From: Rhodothermales bacterium
GTDB taxonomy: Bacteria > Bacteroidota > Rhodothermia > Rhodothermales > VXPQ01
Reading direction: 5' to 3'
NCBI GenBank assembly: GCA_022821845.1
Contig: JAJECT010000034.1
Span: 3,038 to 67,037, forward strand
Length of the DNA: 64,000 nt
Both the position numbers and the translations under genes were made by a program. Of this stretch, positions 25,957-34,407 are shown in pieces; the first letter of the stretch is position 1; each line of letters begins with the position of its first letter. The notes under the pieces are model-generated. The model did no database searches, was not told where the DNA came from, and worked only from the letters and a program-made list of their open reading frames with translations.

Positions 25957-27213
25957 TTATTGCATGACGGCGGTTGCGTGGCGCTTTACGGAAGATACGC
26001 GGCGGCGCTGGGGGATAACGTCTCTGGGTACGCCGTAAAACTTGGCGGCTTCGGCCATCGTCAATGCAAGCAACTTCGGGTCGCCGAGCGCAAGCGTTTG
26101 CTGCGGAATCGTCGGAGCGACGCCGAGGGCGCGTATAATTTCACCCGCGATCGCCCCGCCGAGGAAAGGCGGAACCGAGTTCCCGATCTGTCGAAAACCG
26201 TGCCACTTGGTAACATGAAAACGAAACCAGTCGGGATAGGAGTGCAAACGCGCCGCTTCGCGATTCGTAACGACGCGCGGCGCATGCGGATGTATGGGGC
26301 GAGGCGAAGTGAACGCGCCGCGATCGCTGGCGGTGCCAGCGCGCAGCGTATTGCACTGCCCATCGGGATCCAGTTTCAGAAAACGACTGATCGGTTCGAC
26401 TTTTCCGCATGGCGTCGCCGCAAAACGACGACGGGATTTGTCGGTGTGCGCCGTTCGCAGACTGGACGTCACAAGGGAAGAATCGAAAACGCGCCGATAA
26501 CCGAAATTTTCCGGGTCGTCGCCAGGCACTCGCATTTTTCGAGCGTAATCGGACGGTTGCCCGTACCGCGCCTCGGCCCAATCTCGTCCGATCAATTCGA
26601 ACACATCGTCGGCCTCCGGCAAATCTCCGATGGCGTCGCTTACGGTAACGCGGCGGGTGAGGGGCGAAGGATAATTCGGTAACGGATAGTCCTGTTTGGC
26701 CCCGATCAAAAACAAGCGATGCCGGTTCTGCGGGACTCCGTAATCCGACGCGTTCAGAACGCGATACGGAAGCAGAATGTCGTAATCGTCCGCAAGCGCA
26801 GCGATCATTTCGTCCAGAACCTGCCGCTGTCTGCCCACCGTCAATCCCTTCACATTCTCGAAGACGAAGTACGCCGGGCGCAATTCCAGGACAAGTCGAA
26901 CGAAATGATGCACGAGCGCATTGCGCGGATCGTCCAGGGCGCGCTTGCCGATAAGGGAAAATCCCTGGCACGGCGCGCCCCCGAACACCGCGGCGATATC
27001 CGATCCTTCTATGCCGGCAAGGCGGAGAATATCGCTCCCGGCGATATCGCACACGTTCCGACAGATCGTTTTGCAGTAGGGGAAATTAAATTCGTGCGTC
27101 GCGCAATGAATCGGGTCGATTTCGACGGCGGCCGCCACGTGGAAACCGGCGCGCTCGAAACCGAGGCTCAATCCCCCGGCTCCCGCAAAAAGGTCTATTC
27201 CGATAGGTCGCAT
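25957..27213 (-). CDS. dcm: DNA (cytosine-5)-methyltransferase
   Basis: Motif I DLFAGAGG, motif IV GGAPCQGFS, ENV, QNRHRLF, and C-terminal REAARLHSYPDWF and GNSVPP. The start is set at MRPIGIDLF (ATG at 27211-27213). Confidence 0.92.
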   Translation of the reverse strand: MRPIGIDLFAGAGGLSLGFERAGFHVAAAVEIDPIHCATHEFNFPYCKTICRNVCDIAGSDILRLAGIEGSDIAAVFGGAPCQGFSLIGKRALDDPRNALVHHFVRLVLELRPAYFVFENVKGLTVGRQRQVLDEMIAALADDYDILLPYRVLNASDYGVPQNRHRLFLIGAKQDYPLPNYPSPLTRRVTVSDAIGDLPEADDVFELIGRDWAEARYGQPSDYARKMRVPGDDPENFGYRRVFDSSLVTSSLRTAHTDKSRRRFAATPCGKVEPISRFLKLDPDGQCNTLRAGTASDRGAFTSPRPIHPHAPRVVTNREAARLHSYPDWFRFHVTKWHGFRQIGNSVPPFLGGAIAGEIIRALGVAPTIPQQTLALGDPKLLALTMAEAAKFYGVPRDVIPQRRRVSSVKRHATAVMQ

Positions 27214-27320
27214 GGCGCGCCTCGCATTCTGACTTGGCCTCGAACGTTGAATATGCGTACGAAAAGGCGCTTTGTCAAGATGGAATTTGCCCAGCGCCCG
27301 ACAATGCATCCCGCCCCGTC

Positions 27321-28244
27321 TCACCGCACCGCTTCGTGCACCATCCGGGCGATTTCGGCGCCTGCTTGCGACGCCGTTTCGTGGTCTTCGAATCCTTCCG
27401 TCAGGATGACCAGCACGTAGGACGCGGCGTCTTTCGGATAGACGATGGCTGCGTCGTGCACGACGCCCGTAATCCATCCCGTTTTGTGGGCCACCCGCGT
27501 CCCGGGCGGCAATCCGGCGGGAATCATTTCATTGAATTCCTGCTTCAGCAGAATGTCCCGCATCGCTTCGCTGGCGGCGGGCGAAACCGCCTCGCCCCTG
27601 CGAATGGCGTCCAGCAGCAGGGCCAGGTCCGCCGCCGTGGCCGTATTGTTCAGCCCCCGTTCGAATGCCTTGATGTCCTCCACGCCACGCAGTACGCGCA
27701 TGGTTTGCGTGCCCATGCGTTCCATCGCGCGCTGCACGGAATCCGCCTCCACCCGTTCGATCACCAGATTCGTGGCGAGGTTCGAAGATACCGTGATCAT
27801 GCGTTCGGCCAGGTCGCGGATCGACATTGAATGTCCGAGATGTTCGTAGAGCGCGTCGTCGGAGTCGTCCTCGATGCGAAAGGGGGAGCCGTCCACGATG
27901 GAGGTGAAATCGTTCTCGACGCGCAGGGAATCGTCCAGGGAAAATCGGCCCGCCGCCGCCTGCCGGTAGACCTCGATCAGCACCGGCGTTTTCATGGTGC
28001 TGGCGGCGTGAAACACCCGGTCCCCCCGTATGGAAAAGCGCGTATCGGTTTCCGGGTCGATCAGCGCCACGGCGATCTCCGCCTCCGGCCAGGCAGTGAC
28101 GAAGGATTCGATGTTGGCCTTCAGGGTTTCGGAAGGAGGGGGCATGTTCTGGTCTGGATGGGCGCATCCCGGGGCCACTATGCCCCACGCCGCGAAGAGC
28201 GCGGACGCAAGCAGAACGGGAAGCGGTCGAGCGGGAGCGTACAT
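27321..28244 (-). CDS. Class A beta-lactamase-related serine hydrolase, lipoprotein
   Basis: STMK (SxxK), SSN and KTG triad motifs. Lipobox-like VAPGC in the signal region. The start is set at MYAPARP. Confidence 0.8.
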   Translation of the reverse strand: MYAPARPLPVLLASALFAAWGIVAPGCAHPDQNMPPPSETLKANIESFVTAWPEAEIAVALIDPETDTRFSIRGDRVFHAASTMKTPVLIEVYRQAAAGRFSLDDSLRVENDFTSIVDGSPFRIEDDSDDALYEHLGHSMSIRDLAERMITVSSNLATNLVIERVEADSVQRAMERMGTQTMRVLRGVEDIKAFERGLNNTATAADLALLLDAIRRGEAVSPAASEAMRDILLKQEFNEMIPAGLPPGTRVAHKTGWITGVVHDAAIVYPKDAASYVLVILTEGFEDHETASQAGAEIARMVHEAVR

Positions 28245-28281
28245 GAAGCGAAGGAGGCGCGGTCTGAGGACCCGCAACGGG

Positions 28282-28689
28282 TCAGGATGTATCCAGCAAA
28301 ATATGGTCAAGCGCTGGAATGCGGCCATACTTCTTCTCGAACGTAAGGAGACGCCCGCCGCGCTCTTGCGTCGCTGCCGCAATCCATACCATGTTGGCGG
28401 GCATGGGGGCGTTTGCGCGGCGCAGTGCGGCGAATATGCGGGCATAGTACATGGCGGTTTGCGCAGTCGTTTCCAATACGCTCACGAAGGGTTCGTCCAG
28501 GAATTCCGCAAGCATGCGCCGGTTCTCCTTGGCGCGGCGGCTGAGTGCGAACGCGGCCTCCAGTTCGCCCAGGACGGTTGCGGGCAAGGCCACCGTGGCC
28601 GCTTCGGCTACATGGTCCAGCGCCCCGGGGTGCCCGGCTCGCAAATGCGCCCACGCGCTGGTGTCAAGCACAAGCAGATGCGCGGACAT
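28282..28689 (-). CDS. vapC: PIN-domain toxin
   Basis: LLVLDTSAW N-terminal acidic motif and a conserved E/D pattern. It overlaps the upstream antitoxin gene by 1 nt. Confidence 0.85.
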   Translation of the reverse strand: MSAHLLVLDTSAWAHLRAGHPGALDHVAEAATVALPATVLGELEAAFALSRRAKENRRMLAEFLDEPFVSVLETTAQTAMYYARIFAALRRANAPMPANMVWIAAATQERGGRLLTFEKKYGRIPALDHILLDTS

Positions 28690-28934
28690 TATCGCCAGTA
28701 TCTTCTTCTGAGGCTGCGCTGGGGCCGCAGCGCCTCGGTGAATTCTTCCATGTCTTCGTCCGTCCAGGTGGCGTACCGCTCCAGGCGTTCGCGCCGCATA
28801 TTCAGCCCCGCGGCGTCCCGGAGCAGGTGCAATACGGTGCGGTTCAAACTCTCCCCGCGGGCTGCGCCAATAGCGCGAATCCGCCGCGAAAGTTCCGAAT
28901 CGACATTGCGTACTGTAATGCGGGATGATGTCAT
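28689..28934 (-). CDS. vapB: Ribbon-helix-helix (FitA/VapB-like) antitoxin
   Basis: ITVRNVDSELSRRIRAIGAARGESLNRTVLHLL is the RHH strand-helix-helix pattern. It is paired with the PIN toxin. Confidence 0.75.
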   Translation of the reverse strand: MTSSRITVRNVDSELSRRIRAIGAARGESLNRTVLHLLRDAAGLNMRRERLERYATWTDEDMEEFTEALRPQRSLRRRYWR

Positions 28935-28972
28935 GATGTCGTTAATATAGTGTCATGGTGTCATAATTGCAA
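28925..28972 (-). promoter_or_regulatory. vapBC promoter with TGTCAT/ATGATGTC operator-like repeats
   Basis: On the minus strand TTGCAA (28967-28972), a 17-nt spacer, then TATATT, then a nearly leaderless ATG. Tandem ATGATGTC sits at 28925-28932 and 28933-28940. TGTCAT sits at 28951-28956 and 28959-28964. Confidence 0.45.
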
Positions 28973-28974
28973 GT

Positions 28975-29066
28975 GGGGGTGTTTGTTGGGGTGGTGCGGC
29001 TGGGGGCTGGGCGGGCGCTTCTGGGCTGTGGGGGAAGGGGCTTTTGGGGAAGCGTGGCGGGGGTGG
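28975..29066 (+). repeat. Strand-asymmetric G-tract region (at least nine runs of G3-G5 on the plus strand)
   Basis: G runs read directly at 28975-79, 28988-91, 29002-06, 29009-11, 29013-15, 29023-25, 29030-34, 29037-40, 29046-49 and 29059-63, with almost no C runs. Confidence 0.85.
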
Positions 29067-29121
29067 AAACGTGAAATGCAGCCTGGATACGGGCGGCAAT
29101 TGGGGAATCCAGGGCTTGATC

Positions 29122-29151
29122 TTGACATTGCGATGCTATATTCCGTATCAT
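29122..29151 (+). promoter_or_regulatory. Sigma70-type promoter, module copy A
   Basis: TTGACA (29122-29127), an 18-nt spacer, then TATCAT (29146-29151). The same arrangement recurs at 31387-31416. Confidence 0.55.
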
Positions 29152-29160
29152 GCTGAACCG

Positions 29161-29476
29161 CCATCGGTTTTCAGTAAATATTCCATTCGGTACGGACCAT
29201 GCCAGCCTCCTCCCCCGACAATCGGCCTATCATGCCGGAGGCGCTTGGGCGTACCCGTAACCCGTTGGGGCACAACGAGGAGCCCCCCCCCCTCGATTTT
29301 ATCCTGACCGTTGGGTTCGCGGCGTAGCGCCGATTCTCGCGCTGACGCTTGCAGGGGGTGTCAAAAGTAACACGGCGAATCGCGCGGTTCGCATACGCAG
29401 GCGTTTGGCTCTGTTCTTCGCCACAGCGCAAAGCCTGGCAAGCGGTGTTGTTTGCCAATGTCGAATTCGAAAGCCG
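29161..29476 (+). repeat. Conserved leader / candidate ncRNA module, copy A
   Basis: Aligns without indels to 31425-31740 at a constant offset of 2264 bp. I count 9 mismatches in 29161-29327 and 28 in 29328-29476. Confidence 0.9.
29199..29327 (+). CDS. Candidate 42-codon sORF inside module copy A
   Basis: Encodes MPASSPDNRPIMPEALGRTRNPLGHNEEPPPLDFILTVGFAA. It is conserved in copy B with mostly third-position or conservative changes. Conservation drops right after the shared TAG. No clear Shine-Dalgarno. Confidence 0.3.
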   Translation: MPASSPDNRPIMPEALGRTRNPLGHNEEPPPLDFILTVGFAA

Positions 29477-29539
29477 TGATTGACATCCTTTCCACCGCCT
29501 GCGCGAGCCCAAACCCTTTCCAAGACAATTCATGAGATC

Positions 29540-31348
29540 ATGGAAGTCAAACTACGTAACCTCACTCACCTTTTCGTTCAACCGGGCCAGTACGAGATAC
29601 CGAGGTTCCAGCGCCCATACGTCTGGACCCGGGACAAACAGTGGATGCCGCTCTGGGAAGATGTTCAGCATATGGCGGAACGTATCCTCGCGGCACGACG
29701 CGACGGCTCCCCGCAACCTCAGCCCCATTTTATGGGTGCGGTGGTGCTGCAGCAGATTGCTAATGTAACCGGCTCGCTTCCGCGACGCATCGTAGTGGAC
29801 GGGCAACAACGCCTCACCACGCTCCAGCTTCTTCTCGACGCGGCGCAGGAAGTCTTTTTACGCAGGAATATCGCTGATCCTGCCGCCCGGCTTGAGGACT
29901 TGGTGTTGAACCAGCCGAAATACCAGCGTGGCAACGCGAACTACGCATTCAAGGTTTGGCCTACCGATTCAGACCAGGAGGCGTTTCGACATGCGATGGT
30001 CAATGGCTTGTCGGGAGGCGAATGGCCCAAATCGCGGATCGTACAGGCCCATGAATTCTTCAAGGATCAGGTAGACCAGTGGGTTGACGAAGAGGAGGGG
30101 CTGGATGCGGACGCGAACGAGCGAGCCGAGGCGCTGGAGGAAGTACTGTCGCAGCTATTGGAATTGGTTGTCATCGACTTGGGTGCATCGGATAACCCTC
30201 ATATCATTTTCGAGACCTTGAACGCTCGGGGCACGCCGCTTCGCCAGTCTGACTTGATGAAGAATATGATCCTGCACGAGGCAGAGAAAACCGGTATCGG
30301 CAAAAAAGTGACTTGGCCGTTCGAAGTTTCATGGTGGGATGAGGAAATTGAGCAGGGGCGACTCAGGCGCCCTCGCATCGACGTGTTCCTTAACTACTGG
30401 CTGGCGATGCGTATGCGCCGGGAAATTGTAGCTGCGGACGTGTTTTTGTCGTTCCAACGGTATTACGGAGGACAAGAACATGCCGCGATTAGCGACATTT
30501 TGGCTGATATCGCGAGCGTCAGTTTGGCCTATCGTCGCCTTGAAAAAGAGGAGCTGGACGGAGTGTGGGCGGCGTTTACTCCTCGCAGGAAAGTCATGCA
30601 AGCAGCCGTGGCGACCCCCGTTTTGTTGTGGTTGCTTTCGTCCCAAACGGAGCCGGACCAAGTATTCAGGGCCATCAAGGCACTGGAAAGCTATCTGGTG
30701 CGACGGATGGTGTGTCGTATGACCACCAAGAACTACAACAAGACGTTTATTGAACTCGTTCGGCGACTTGAACACGCTGGTCCGGCGACGGCAGGCGATA
30801 CAATCATTGAATTCCTCGGCGAACAGGAGGCGTACGCCACGCTTTGGCCCAACGACAATCTTGTGCTGGAAGCCATATCCAATAAGCCTTTGTACCGGCT
30901 ACTCTCGCGTAGACGAATGAGAATGGTCCTGGATGGGATTGAGGAGGCGCTCTGGACCACCAAATCCGAAGGCGGGCGGCGCCAAACTGCGTTGACGATC
31001 GAGCATATCATGCCGCGGAGCTGGCGGGGACACTGGCCAGAGCCAGAGCCGACGGACGGCCCCGAAGAACCAGATGAGAGGCGAAACCGACTGCTTGATT
31101 CGCTTGGCAATCTAACGCTCGTCACCCAGCCGTTGAATTCGTCGCTTTCTAACGGACCCTGGGCAGACAAGCGGAAGGGACTCCTGGGGCACAGTACGCT
31201 GTTTCTCAACAAGGACTTACTGGAGCATTTCCAGGATCATGTGTGGGACGAAGATGCGATCTACGCCAGGGCGGAGCGGCTGCATAGGGCATTTGTGAAG
31301 GCGTGGCCGCACGGCGCCGATATTGGCGCCGGATCCGCGACAGGTTAA
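29540..31348 (+). CDS. GmrSD-family type IV (modification-dependent) restriction endonuclease, DUF262 plus DUF1524
   Basis: N-terminal YEIPRFQRPYVW and VVDGQQRLTTL (ParB-like NTPase). C-terminal His-Me finger TIEHIMPRSW...LGNLTLVTQPLNSSLSN. The start is taken at ATG 29540; the ORF is open from 29480. Confidence 0.88.
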   Translation: MEVKLRNLTHLFVQPGQYEIPRFQRPYVWTRDKQWMPLWEDVQHMAERILAARRDGSPQPQPHFMGAVVLQQIANVTGSLPRRIVVDGQQRLTTLQLLLDAAQEVFLRRNIADPAARLEDLVLNQPKYQRGNANYAFKVWPTDSDQEAFRHAMVNGLSGGEWPKSRIVQAHEFFKDQVDQWVDEEEGLDADANERAEALEEVLSQLLELVVIDLGASDNPHIIFETLNARGTPLRQSDLMKNMILHEAEKTGIGKKVTWPFEVSWWDEEIEQGRLRRPRIDVFLNYWLAMRMRREIVAADVFLSFQRYYGGQEHAAISDILADIASVSLAYRRLEKEELDGVWAAFTPRRKVMQAAVATPVLLWLLSSQTEPDQVFRAIKALESYLVRRMVCRMTTKNYNKTFIELVRRLEHAGPATAGDTIIEFLGEQEAYATLWPNDNLVLEAISNKPLYRLLSRRRMRMVLDGIEEALWTTKSEGGRRQTALTIEHIMPRSWRGHWPEPEPTDGPEEPDERRNRLLDSLGNLTLVTQPLNSSLSNGPWADKRKGLLGHSTLFLNKDLLEHFQDHVWDEDAIYARAERLHRAFVKAWPHGADIGAGSATG

Positions 31349-31366
31349 ATCCGCCGCGTTTTTTTT
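31327..31366 (+). terminator. Rho-independent terminator after the GmrSD gene
   Basis: The stem cgccggat (31327-31334) pairs with atccg..gcg (31349-31358) with a CC bulge, and is followed by T8 (31359-31366). The stop codon lies in the loop. Confidence 0.5.
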
Positions 31367-31386
31367 GGAAACCCTTTGGCTTCTGC

Positions 31387-31416
31387 TTGACATTTCGATT
31401 CTAAATTTCGTATCAT
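31387..31416 (+). promoter_or_regulatory. Sigma70-type promoter, module copy B
   Basis: TTGACA (31387-31392), an 18-nt spacer, then TATCAT (31411-31416). Confidence 0.55.
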
Positions 31417-31424
31417 AGTGCCCA

Positions 31425-31740
31425 CCATCGGTTTTCAGTAAACATTCCATTCGGTACGGACCATGCCAGCCTCCTCCCCCGACAATCGGCCTATCATGCC
31501 GGAGGCGCTTGGACGTACCCGTAACCCGTTGGGGCACAAAGAAGAGCCCCCCCCCCTCGACTTTGTCCTGATCATTGGGCTCGCGGCGTAGCGCAAATTC
31601 TGTCGCTGACGCTTACGGGGTGTGTCAAAAGTAACACGGCGAATCGTGCGGTTCGCGGACGAAGCCGTTTGGTCCTGTTCTTCGCCGCAGCGCAAAGATT
31701 GGTACGCGATGTTTCTTGTCAATGCCCAATCCGAAACGCA
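31425..31740 (+). repeat. Conserved leader / candidate ncRNA module, copy B
   Basis: Indel-free alignment to 29161-29476. Confidence 0.9.
31463..31591 (+). CDS. Candidate 42-codon sORF inside module copy B
   Basis: Encodes MPASSPDNRPIMPEALGRTRNPLGHKEEPPPLDFVLIIGLAA, with the same start and stop register as copy A. Confidence 0.3.
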   Translation: MPASSPDNRPIMPEALGRTRNPLGHKEEPPPLDFVLIIGLAA

Positions 31741-32151
31741 ATAAAAATCCGAACCCTGTTTCTTGCGGCGGCCTTGATGCTGGCAGCCTGCGGACCTATG
31801 CAAGCGGAACGGCGGGAAGCGGACGCGCAAACGGATACCGTGTACTATTATAAACTTGCCCCGGTCCTTTCTCCTTGTCTTGATGCGTTCCGGCAAGCTT
31901 TGTATCCCGTAGCCGACTTATCCCTTTTCGTACCCCCTCCGGGGCATTCTGATCTTTTCCCGGCCTATTGGGCTTGCCGGACGCTTGACGAATGGACGGA
32001 AGCAAGCGAACGGTTTCCGGTGGTGTTGCAACTGGGCGGAGTAGACCCCGTTTGCTATGCGCTCAAAGTTTGCAACTGGGCGGCGGACGAACAAGAAGGC
32101 TACGCCGCCGCAATACAGGGTTCCCCGATATGCGAAGCGGTTGCGGTTTAG
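31699..32151 (+). CDS. Hypothetical lipoprotein
   Basis: Lipobox LMLAAC follows a K/R-containing n-region. It is Cys-rich with no recognised domain. The start is uncertain (TTG at 31699 or 31669) and overlaps the end of the module. Confidence 0.5.
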   Translation: MVRDVSCQCPIRNAIKIRTLFLAAALMLAACGPMQAERREADAQTDTVYYYKLAPVLSPCLDAFRQALYPVADLSLFVPPPGHSDLFPAYWACRTLDEWTEASERFPVVLQLGGVDPVCYALKVCNWAADEQEGYAAAIQGSPICEAVAV

Positions 32152-32207
32152 GCTACTTGTCGCTATTCCATTTTTTGTGCTCCATCCATTAACCCATCGG
32201 AAACGCT

Positions 32208-32669
32208 ATGTTTACGACAATCGTTATTATTTGCGTCATTTTCTGGCTTATCAAGAAAATGATCAATAGTTACGCGGATCACAACAGGAGAAAAGAGGGG
32301 GCATCAGGAACACCATTTGCGCGAGCATACTACGCACAGGCGCGGGCATTGTTTGCGGAAGGGGATTACGAATATCTTGAACGCGGTGTAACCACCAAGA
32401 AAGAAGATGCGGCGAGTGCTAAATACAATGCTGAGCGAGCGTGGAGTAAGGACAACGCTTCCTTTTTGCGGGAACAGACTCGCATGGCTCATTTACACGC
32501 CGCACGGGCGCAGGTAAACGCTTCGAACTGGCGGCATACGGAGAGAAAGAAAACCGACGTTCCGAAAGAACTGGCGAACAAGGCGGCGGTGGCGTGGGAA
32601 GAGGCGGCGGAAGCGTGGGAGGCGATTGCTGCGGATCACAAAACGAAGGAAAATGATGGAAATGCATGA
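32208..32669 (+). CDS. Hypothetical N-terminally anchored protein
   Basis: ATG start. TM helix FTTIVIICVIFWLI is followed by a helical, charged domain. Confidence 0.5.
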   Translation: MFTTIVIICVIFWLIKKMINSYADHNRRKEGASGTPFARAYYAQARALFAEGDYEYLERGVTTKKEDAASAKYNAERAWSKDNASFLREQTRMAHLHAARAQVNASNWRHTERKKTDVPKELANKAAVAWEEAAEAWEAIAADHKTKENDGNA

Positions 32670-33120
32670 ATCTTGGCCCTTGATTGTGGGCCTAGGGGCA
32701 GTAATGGGCATAAACCCCTTCGCCGCCGCGTTCGCTCTGGGGCTGGCTGGGGCAACGGGAACGGTTGATTTGCCGGGGGGTCTTGATGCGTTGCAAAAGA
32801 TCTGGGTAATCGTTCTTTCCGGCCTTCTGTATGGCGGGGAAGCGATTCTCGACAAGATTCCGGGCGTGGATACTGTATTTAACGCCATTGAAACCGTTGT
32901 TCGTGTGCCTGCGGCCAGCATGGCGGGCTATGCGGTAACGGGCGATCTGTTTGGAATCATGGCCGGGGGCATTTCGGGTACGACCCTTCACGGGTCAAAG
33001 ACACTTTTGCGTATCCCTATGACCGGTGCGCCGGGCCTTAACATACCCGTATCGTTTGGCGAAGACGCCGCCGTTTTTTATGCCCTGTGGTGGATGTGGC
33101 AACAGGGGTGGTTTGCATGA
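32653..33120 (+). CDS. DUF4126-like integral membrane protein
   Basis: Gly/Ala-rich helices LIVGLGAVMGINPFAAAFALGLAG and DKIPGVDTVFNAIETVVRVPAA fit DUF4126. It overlaps the upstream gene by 17 nt. Confidence 0.7.
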   Translation: MMEMHESWPLIVGLGAVMGINPFAAAFALGLAGATGTVDLPGGLDALQKIWVIVLSGLLYGGEAILDKIPGVDTVFNAIETVVRVPAASMAGYAVTGDLFGIMAGGISGTTLHGSKTLLRIPMTGAPGLNIPVSFGEDAAVFYALWWMWQQGWFA

Positions 33121-33228
33121 AAACGGCTTTCTCCTTCGGTTTTTGGCGGACGGGGAAAGCGGGATATCTTTGTGACGGGGCGAAAACCCGTTTCGCCTGA
33201 AACCTCACCAACAAAACCTCCGAATACA

Positions 33229-33456
33229 ATGGCACTTAAACCAGAAGATGCGAAATCCGATCAAATTTGTCTTTTTGTTGCGGGATGCACGGGCTGCAAA
33301 AAGCAGGACGTGGTAAAGAGTATAGGCGTTCAGTTTGGATCAATAGATACGCGTATAAACCTCGGCTGGATCGTCGATGCAAAAGACAATGTGCAAAAAC
33401 GCACCGAACTTTATGTTACGCATAAGTGGTTGCATCATGTGCGTGGCGGGCTGTAG
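33229..33456 (+). CDS. Small hypothetical protein with a CxxC motif
   Basis: 75 aa from MALKPEDAK, containing CLFVAGCTGC. No recognised family. Confidence 0.35.
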   Translation: MALKPEDAKSDQICLFVAGCTGCKKQDVVKSIGVQFGSIDTRINLGWIVDAKDNVQKRTELYVTHKWLHHVRGGL

Positions 33457-33705
33457 CATGCACTTCGAGAATTGCACACAATCCGGGCGGGCATACGCTC
33501 GTTTTTCCAGCGACCGACCTGCGTGAGGCCGGACAATTCCGTACCAGAGGGGGCAAGGTCCCCGGCCATGCCTATGCGGGCGGAATGCCCCGAAAATTCG
33601 CCATTGAAGTCAACGGTAGCACAGATAAGGAGGGGCACATCCACAATTCCCACGGGACGTTTTTCCCGTCCCCCGCCAAGACAACAGCATAATCAAGTTG
33701 TTTTT

Positions 33706-33733
33706 GTCAGATATTTCATATAATTTTTCTGAC
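33706..33733 (+). promoter_or_regulatory. Promoter with perfect -10 flanked by an inverted repeat (candidate autoregulatory operator)
   Basis: TATAAT at 33719-33724 is bracketed by GTCAGA (33706-33711) and TCTGAC (33728-33733). It lies 20 nt upstream of the DUF6088 start codon. Confidence 0.45.
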
Positions 33734-33753
33734 CAACCACGCAAAAAACCTTC

Positions 33754-34407
33754 ATGGCAACCACAGCAAGCGCCATACTGGAGCGAATCCGGCACCAGCG
33801 GGATCAGGTCTGGACGCCGAAAGATTTCCTGGACCTCGGCAAACGCGCTGCGGTTGACAAGGCCCTCTCTCGCCTTGTCGGCAGCGAAAAACTGCGGCGC
33901 ATAGGGCATGGACTGTACGACATGCCTCGATTCAATCCAATTCTGAAACGCTTCGCGCCGGTCAGCCTCAATGCTGCCATCGCCGCCATCGCCCGACGAG
34001 ACAACATACGCATCATGCCCGATGGCTCCGTGGCGGCGAACAGGCTTGGCCTGACCAACGCTGTCCCGGCCAAGCCGAATTATCTTACGGACGGCGGAAC
34101 GCGATCACTGATTGTCGATGGACGTATGATCTACCTGCGACACGCCGGACCCAAGGTAATGTACTGGACAGGCAACAAGCGAACCGGCCCGGTCGTTCAG
34201 GCAATTCGCTGGCTTGGCCCGCAAGCAGTCCAGGACGAGCAGGTCCTCTCCGCGCTAAAACGCCGCCTCCCCGATTCCGTGAAGCAGGATTTGGTGCGCA
34301 ACGCCCGCCATTTACCCGGATGGATCCTGTCTTTGGCGAATGAACTCGTGGACAATCCGCCCGATGCCCCCGCAACGCGATGCGAGAAGCATTCAGGAAA
34401 TTTATGA
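33754..34407 (+). CDS. DUF6088 / AbiEi-like antitoxin-family protein
   Basis: ILERIRHQRDQVWTPKDFLDLG...VDKALSRLVGSEKLRRIGHGLY is the wHTH N-terminus of AbiEi/DUF6088 proteins. No AbiEii nucleotidyltransferase follows. Confidence 0.8.
   Translation: MATTASAILERIRHQRDQVWTPKDFLDLGKRAAVDKALSRLVGSEKLRRIGHGLYDMPRFNPILKRFAPVSLNAAIAAIARRDNIRIMPDGSVAANRLGLTNAVPAKPNYLTDGGTRSLIVDGRMIYLRHAGPKVMYWTGNKRTGPVVQAIRWLGPQAVQDEQVLSALKRRLPDSVKQDLVRNARHLPGWILSLANELVDNPPDAPATRCEKHSGNL

Follow-up and report, generated by a model that had tools for sequence, protein, structure and literature searches.

In the Vlp, Vsa and Vsp lipoprotein families of Mycoplasma, divergent mature parts follow a 5' expression region that is conserved and carries a homopolymer tract; the tract of Vlp is part of the promoter spacer and affects transcription. 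Phase variation through homopolymeric tracts is also known from the poly-G/C tracts of Campylobacter, Neisseria and Bordetella (PMC8355987, PMC5084427, PMC1891110, PMC2831843), and the general picture of the poly-G/C contingency locus has already been described (PMC8355987, PMC2831843). Contingency loci of this kind are usually linked with host-adapted pathogens. Phase switches can also be located in leaders, as is the case for the invertible elements of fim and of C. difficile flgB (review PMC12360218). A literature search returned no report of poly-G/C contingency loci for the Rhodothermales. The locus analysed here lies in a stretch of 64,000 nucleotides (the window) from a Rhodothermales genome of 2.8 Mb with 60.8% GC in 45 contigs (G000), and a preliminary description had singled it out for a duplicated 42-codon ORF that may encode a peptide. 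To judge from the nucleotide sequence of 12 copies, translation of the region is probable, in the form of a switchable leader frame, and the odds lean towards a phase-variable leader ORF of which the 42-aa ORF would be the OFF phase.

The window contains a direct repeat in which a promoter (TTGACA, 18 nt, TATCAT) and about 310 nt recur at 89% identity with an offset of 2264 nt, all features discussed here being on the forward strand. In the first copy, the promoter at 29122..29151 matches the consensus at 11 of 12 positions, with both hexamers kept in all full copies, and is followed by a 5' leader at 29158..29198 (0.32 changes per site on a nine-copy tree) whose first ~27-35 nt are common to a locus of the sister genome that lacks the core of the module. 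The part of the leader ORF that precedes the tract (MPASSPDNRPIMPEALGRTRNPLGHNEE; start codon and 28 codons) extends over 29199..29282, with the ATG kept in 12 of 12 copies. This is the slowest-evolving part of the module with 0.23 changes per site, yet its ratio of nonsynonymous to synonymous change (pN/pS) is 0.66-0.70. The poly-C run, here C10 and the proposed slipped-strand switch, occupies 29283..29292. Downstream of it, a TGA at 29305..29307 closes the 36-aa reading seen with C12 and a TAG at 29325..29327 closes the 42-aa reading seen with C10, the former inside a CTGA and the latter inside GCGTAGCG, both of which are invariant across all copies.

The frame at +1 relative to the 42-aa frame, called the ON frame in the following, extends over 29291..29479 with 62 open codons and a TGA at 29477-29479. 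It ends 60 nt before the ATG of the cargo gene and in the same frame as this gene, which encodes a GmrSD-type type IV restriction enzyme at 29540..31348 (Pfam GmrSD_N E=7e-34, GmrSD_C E=1e-24). The 60-nt spacer holds no further stop in this frame, and an in-frame TTG at 29480 directly adjoins the TGA (window 29477-29482), with TTA in its place in one lineage (L069_A). In the second copy, the promoter lies at 31387..31416 (again 11 of 12 consensus matches), the second 42-codon reading, in the proposed OFF phase with C10, at 31463..31591, and the run, likewise C10, at 31547..31556. Here the ON frame (31555..32151) comprises 198 codons and stays open from the run through the cargo lipoprotein, whose expected start at 31741-31743 reads ATA where related genes have the ATG of a signal peptide of the form MK(T/I)R.. 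The same ATA-for-ATG replacement is present in L069_B, and a 24-nt in-frame indel near 31741-31743 is bordered by ATCCGAA direct repeats. No internal promoter was found around the C run.

The two 42-codon frames, each running from ATG to TAG, have the coordinates and peptides given for them in the preliminary description, which was also right that they differ at exactly eight sites (four third, three first and one second codon position), of which three are synonymous and the remaining third-position change exchanges N and K. Other parts of that description need correction. The 38 nt upstream of the ATG, said to be invariant, contain one mismatch (T/C at 29179), and the four-fold jump in divergence placed immediately after the stop is a ~2.9-fold one, from 6.2% in the ORF to 18% after it. 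The step itself sits at the poly-C run and not at the TAG, with mismatches between the copies at 3 of 84 positions before the run, 5 of 35 from the run to the TAG and 25 of 139 beyond the TAG. As for the claim that other genes here have strong Shine-Dalgarno sites, cores of such sites stand upstream of 10% of 2185 long ORFs, which is the frequency in a control window (10%), and none precedes ribD, ribE, the GmrSD gene or the sulfatase gene. Translation starts in this genome resemble those of Bacteroidota, and since the genome does not use Shine-Dalgarno sites, their absence at the 42-aa ORF is uninformative. The start context of the ORF, ggaccATG, is that of ribE. The mere presence of the ORF does not go beyond chance, as 27% of core shuffles have an ATG-initiated ORF of at least 42 codons, and nor does its intactness, as it survives eight random substitutions in 63% of trials. 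The synonymous share of the changes (3/8 in two copies, 4/16 in four) corresponds to the neutral expectation of 0.26-0.30. Comparisons of ORFs from two copies in GC-rich DNA carry almost no information, which may serve as a general warning.

A larger sample was obtained from this genome, its sister genome and metagenome contigs, giving 12 distinct copies of the module, several of them in two or three independent assemblies. A third copy in G000 lies on another contig and one is present in the sister genome (G009, Rhodothermales MAG jk18x25bins.61); across 285 genomes of the order, BLAST with the module as query matched these two genomes only. Exact 22-mer scans gave the sister MAG and one chance match among genome contigs and zero matches among JGI metagenome contigs. 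The extra copies were gained via contigs encoding close GmrSD homologs and via contigs encoding an antisense ORF, a spurious one that gene callers often place over the module. These antisense ORFs (120 and 153 aa over the core) are Arg-rich and frameshifted by the same run; they were discarded as genes and served only as bait.

In all 12 copies the C run is uninterrupted, while its flanking sites carry 0.23-0.83 changes per site. Its length varies, with seven copies at C10, two at C11 and three at C12, and this length sets the reading frame from the ATG. All seven C10 copies read 42 aa; one C12 copy with a 1-nt insertion just upstream of the run reads 43 aa in the same phase; the other two C12 copies read 36 aa up to the invariant TGA; and in both C11 copies the frame enters the copy's own cargo, giving products of 442 aa and 277 aa. 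Computation of the frames indicates that a C11 reading would reach the cargo in the other copies as well, after ~93-155 codons. When the N-terminal 105 residues of the 442-aa product were searched against proteins, the only match was the product itself, and the exact sequence is not on record. Between orthologous copies linked to GmrSD, the run differs (C10 versus C12) at 90-95% identity of the flanks. Three marks of a contingency locus are present: a run of at least ~8-9 nt, polymorphic length with kept flanks, and a switch between a long and a truncated frame.

These frames bear directly on the reading in which the 42-aa peptide is a functional micropeptide, perhaps beside the switch, with its hydrophobic tail LDF(I/V)L(T/I)(V/I)GF(A)A as the active part. 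Eight of the 12 copies keep the 42/43-aa phase, where random phases would give one in three, and the most divergent copy (L083) restores this phase by a net +3 change and has a similar tail, NVGFIA. The TAG is invariant, and a gene caller annotated the 42-aa ORF in GCA_022823835.1 (L075 3660-3788). The excess of this one phase and its restoration in L083 also count against a switch, as the phase could be favoured in itself. The remaining four copies are out of frame, and pN/pS by the Nei-Gojobori method is 0.66-0.70 on both sides of the run, which is no better than in other frames (0.50-1.32). Third positions are not enriched among the variable sites (7/4/5 in four copies, 6/3/6 in eleven), the replacements in the 42-aa frame include the radical changes R20P, R20C, P2T and A41K, and no protein family matches the peptide. 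Neither the intact ORF nor the frame-specific purifying selection expected of a small-protein gene is therefore found, and the micropeptide must be considered highly improbable.

The same observations apply to the claim from which the analysis started. Homologs carry frameshifts in the flagged frame while the surrounding sequence and the stems are kept, an outcome that the preliminary description had itself named as a refutation, and no frame is under purifying selection at the amino-acid level; a conserved 42-aa peptide gene is therefore unsupported. The wider suggestion that the core is translated and does not act as RNA only has gained ground, with the ATG and its context kept and the ON frame open. 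As run length sets the frame and C10 leads to the TAG, the 42-aa ORF would be the product of the OFF phase and not a peptide selected for its sequence. Annotation pipelines will label it a hypothetical protein, as one already did, and this would be misleading.

The ON frame is free of stops across a core of ~60 codons in every copy, which has a probability of ~0.013 given ~129 parsimony changes and a stop probability of ~0.033 per change. In four copies with lipoprotein or secreted cargo it is fused in frame to the cargo gene, also across a 24-nt in-frame indel, and two of the four fused genes have ATA where relatives carry the start ATG. Besides the 60 nt that separate it from GmrSD, the ON frame ends 37 nt before the ATG of a membrane protein gene (L073_B), 23 nt before that of orf76 (L081) and only 2 nt before that of orf506 (L083), while the two OFF frames end 212-359 nt upstream of the cargo ATG at stops that sit inside invariant blocks. 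The tails of L073_B, L081 and L083 are unrelated in sequence and hence provide independent tests of openness; their other frames have 3-6 stops each, and multiplied together, the shuffle probabilities give 3.8e-4. Setting aside the run itself, indels within the module downstream of the ATG keep the frame (one of 24 nt, one -1/+1 pair), in contrast to those upstream of the ATG (5 nt, 1-2 nt).

An open frame of this kind could also be what is left of an older gene. Such an explanation takes the core as the decaying and functionless 5' end of a former lipoprotein gene, caught between the promoter and a newer cargo, with the C run as a mutational hotspot. It draws on the resemblance of the ON frame to a lipoprotein signal peptide (R..RWV.GVAAILSLTLAGC), on the sister locus without the core, where the same promoter and leader run straight into a lipoprotein gene, and on the near-neutral substitutions, with the module diverging by 10-13% between orthologous loci whose flanks diverge by 4-5%. 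A relic would however be expected to acquire stops and interruptions of the run, neither of which is seen in 12 copies, and it would not be expected to stay open through unrelated tails; the similarity to the sister signal peptide at the DNA level is weak (local scores 27-46). This origin is consequently given a very low probability. Homology of the signal-peptide-like stretch of the core with the signal peptide of the sister lipoprotein (G009:C7) was considered separately and is not claimed, the scores of 27-46 arising partly from matches to the cargo's own signal peptide. As the module diverges faster than its flanks, its apparent conservation holds only relative to the cargo, which is wholly unalignable.

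Comparison with relatives shows what the module precedes. Synteny with the sister locus (G009:C7, 95% identity) stops at 29184, inside the leader. In the sister locus (L022, 1599-2078), which is orthologous to the first copy in the window, a lipoprotein gene comes first after the shared promoter and leader, and its signal peptide (frame 0) would be joined to the A/E/W-rich mature part (frame 2) only if a C6 became C7, so that the gene is either in an OFF phase or a pseudogene. The cargo after the module has been replaced between close relatives, with a break either where the module ends on its 3' side or at the signal peptide. Between two genomes with flanks that are 95-97% identical, the genes that follow the module are unalignable (window 29185-33671 against L023 9782-14717; L025 6992-8038 against L024 9000-10857), and at the third copy of G000 recombination between two similar signal-peptide sequences seems to have removed a 141-aa lipoprotein gene that is found in G009. 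The module thus heads variable loci for secreted proteins and brackets the GmrSD gene in G000 and some relatives. GmrSD homologs with 77-79% identity (L077-L080) have no module upstream. One of these (L080 2204-2501, ERZ24894576; 77% identical) occupies the same site between vapBC and the sulfatase gene and has an AT-rich spacer, with both the module and the secreted-protein genes missing. In L075 (4001-5809, GCA_022823835.1) and L076, GmrSD is split into ORFs of 373 aa and 209 aa and is therefore probably inactivated.

As for the RNA of the leader, the core might be a structured cis-regulatory leader RNA in which the ORFs are incidental and the C run is either neutral or part of a helix. In the first four copies, a stretch of 39 nt (29203-29241) does not vary at all; it can pair GCCUCC with GGAGGC around a CCGA-CAA-UCGG hairpin, within a GGUACG/CGUACC stem. 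One compensatory change from G-C to A-U is found in the main stem, and the percentage of paired positions together with the covariation score exceeds all 500 shuffles, a control that related sequences without structure are known to exceed too. Double changes occur in 4 of 62 pairs among nine copies, a level reached by 48 of 500 shuffles. Covariation is weak overall. In the remaining analyses, a scan of 27000-34000 against Rfam 15 (E<=1) gave zero matches, the folding energy of -118.9 kcal/mol equals the shuffle mean of -118.9 (z=0.00), and the alifold covariation term is close to zero (0.04). In L069_A, a 5-nt deletion has removed the 5' arm of the main stem, and other copies show breaks in two pairs. 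Nor does a structured RNA account for the openness of one frame across unrelated tails as far as the start of the cargo. It is an unlikely explanation of the region by itself, but a structured leader could coexist with an ORF switch.

Four things have been observed directly: the run is polymorphic in length, its length alters the frames, the ON frame is kept open, and such runs are in excess across the genome. Around these observations, a mechanism can be proposed for the phase-variable leader ORF. The unit would consist of a sigma-70-type promoter, a leader of ~40 nt, the ATG at 29199, 28 codons and the poly-C run, after which ~60 codons are held open in one frame only. Slipped-strand changes in the run would set the phase, and cells of one population would come to differ in it. 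Ribosomes starting at this ATG would halt at the TAG after 42 codons with C10 (or C13) and at the TGA after 36 codons with C12, while with C11, the ON state, they would reach the end of the module. In the four copies with lipoprotein or secreted cargo, translation would then proceed in frame into the cargo; in the other copies it would end 2-60 nt before the cargo ATG, from where coupling, re-initiation or the opening and unmasking of the start region may act. In each case, the ON phase is predicted to raise expression of the cargo.

Further points besides the phase excess speak against a switch. Run lengths are stable within a lineage across samples, and independent assemblies of one lineage give identical values, which as read from assemblies represent only the majority length. 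None of the five copies linked to GmrSD is in the ON phase, and the 60-nt gap found there is long for coupling. The ON product has no amino-acid constraint, and several copies, one of the two ON copies among them, no longer have its lipobox-like Cys. The untranslated tail lacks a C>G skew or rut-like composition that would suggest a Rho site.

The run in the module does not stand alone, as G000 contains 33 internal G/C runs of 9-13 nt. Counts of G/C runs for lengths 6 to 13 are 855, 123, 11, 8, 10, 10, 5 and 3, a bimodal distribution; A/T runs, by comparison, fall off smoothly with length, and all are shorter than 10. Of the 33 runs, about half are found no more than 60 codons from where a long open frame begins. 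Among the genes next to runs are two N6_N4 DNA methylases, an HsdM-type methylase with a frame that breaks at its run and an Mrr+ResIII enzyme, as well as a TonB-dependent receptor, a Calx-beta protein and large secreted proteins. Examples are the runs at C21:139888-139900, C21:165136-165146, C29:74433-74445, C4:10812-10823 and C19:83785-83794, and many runs in this genome share the context TAG-Cn. Where orthologous runs can be compared between G000 and G009, four of five differ in length or have decayed, with flanks that are 88-97% identical. Long runs are present in most genomes of the genus, closed ones included, but are nearly absent from sister genera. The runs give the classic picture of contingency loci, with a set of phase-variable defence and surface genes.

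A more far-reaching proposal, somewhat short of an even chance, is that the ~355-nt unit is a portable cassette for stochastic expression that recombines in front of unrelated cargo and delivers ribosomes to or into the cargo start, and that it is one of a large unreported set of poly-G/C contingency loci by which a free-living Rhodothermales genus would switch its defence and surface genes at random. The cargo found so far comprises the GmrSD restriction enzyme, at least four different secreted proteins or lipoproteins and one membrane protein. If the reading as a switch is right, slipped-strand phase variation would work via a separate and movable leader ORF, unlike the usual cases with a tract in the controlled gene or its promoter, and an anti-phage type IV restriction enzyme as well as hypervariable secreted proteins would be turned on and off at random in an environmental bacterium. 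With ~33 runs in the genome, this would further suggest that contingency loci are a genus-wide strategy in uncultured Rhodothermales, probably tied to the arms race with phages.

Among the described systems, those in which the leader decides expression share the principle of the proposed switch. As in control by uORFs and leader peptides, be it through coupling or Rho-dependent polarity, the distance that ribosomes travel in the leader would decide downstream expression, and as in fim and flgB the switch would be stochastic, genetic and sited in the leader. It differs from invertible elements and from a metabolite-sensed stall in using a slippage run, with no Rho site evident from composition. 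Stochastic leader switches and uORF-dependent control are therefore known in principle, and a slippage run within a movable leader ORF would be a new form of them.

The Mycoplasma families Vlp, Vsa and Vsp are matched in another respect, as the promoter and 5' end are conserved up to the signal peptide and the mature part is hypervariable and replaced between close strains. Unlike the tract of Vlp, the run is placed inside an ORF, 125 nt beyond the likely start of transcription. The opa and pilC genes of Neisseria, whose repeats lie in the part coding for the signal peptide, share with the four fused cargo genes that a repeat upstream of or within the export signal lets the frame decide over a secreted or surface protein, but in place of CTCTT the present locus has a C run, and ~100 unconstrained leader residues precede the cargo's own signal peptide. 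The poly-G/C contingency loci are matched in several respects: a G/C run of 9 nt or more, without interruption, sits close to the 5' end of a frame, its length differs among close relatives with one length in three giving the long frame, and the genome has many such runs, which cluster at DNA methylases, restriction genes and surface proteins. Three differences set the present locus apart from these. Its host is an uncultured environmental member of the Rhodothermales and not a host-adapted pathogen; the run mostly lies in a separate leader ORF and not in the controlled gene; and the promoter, leader ORF and run recur together in front of unrelated cargo.
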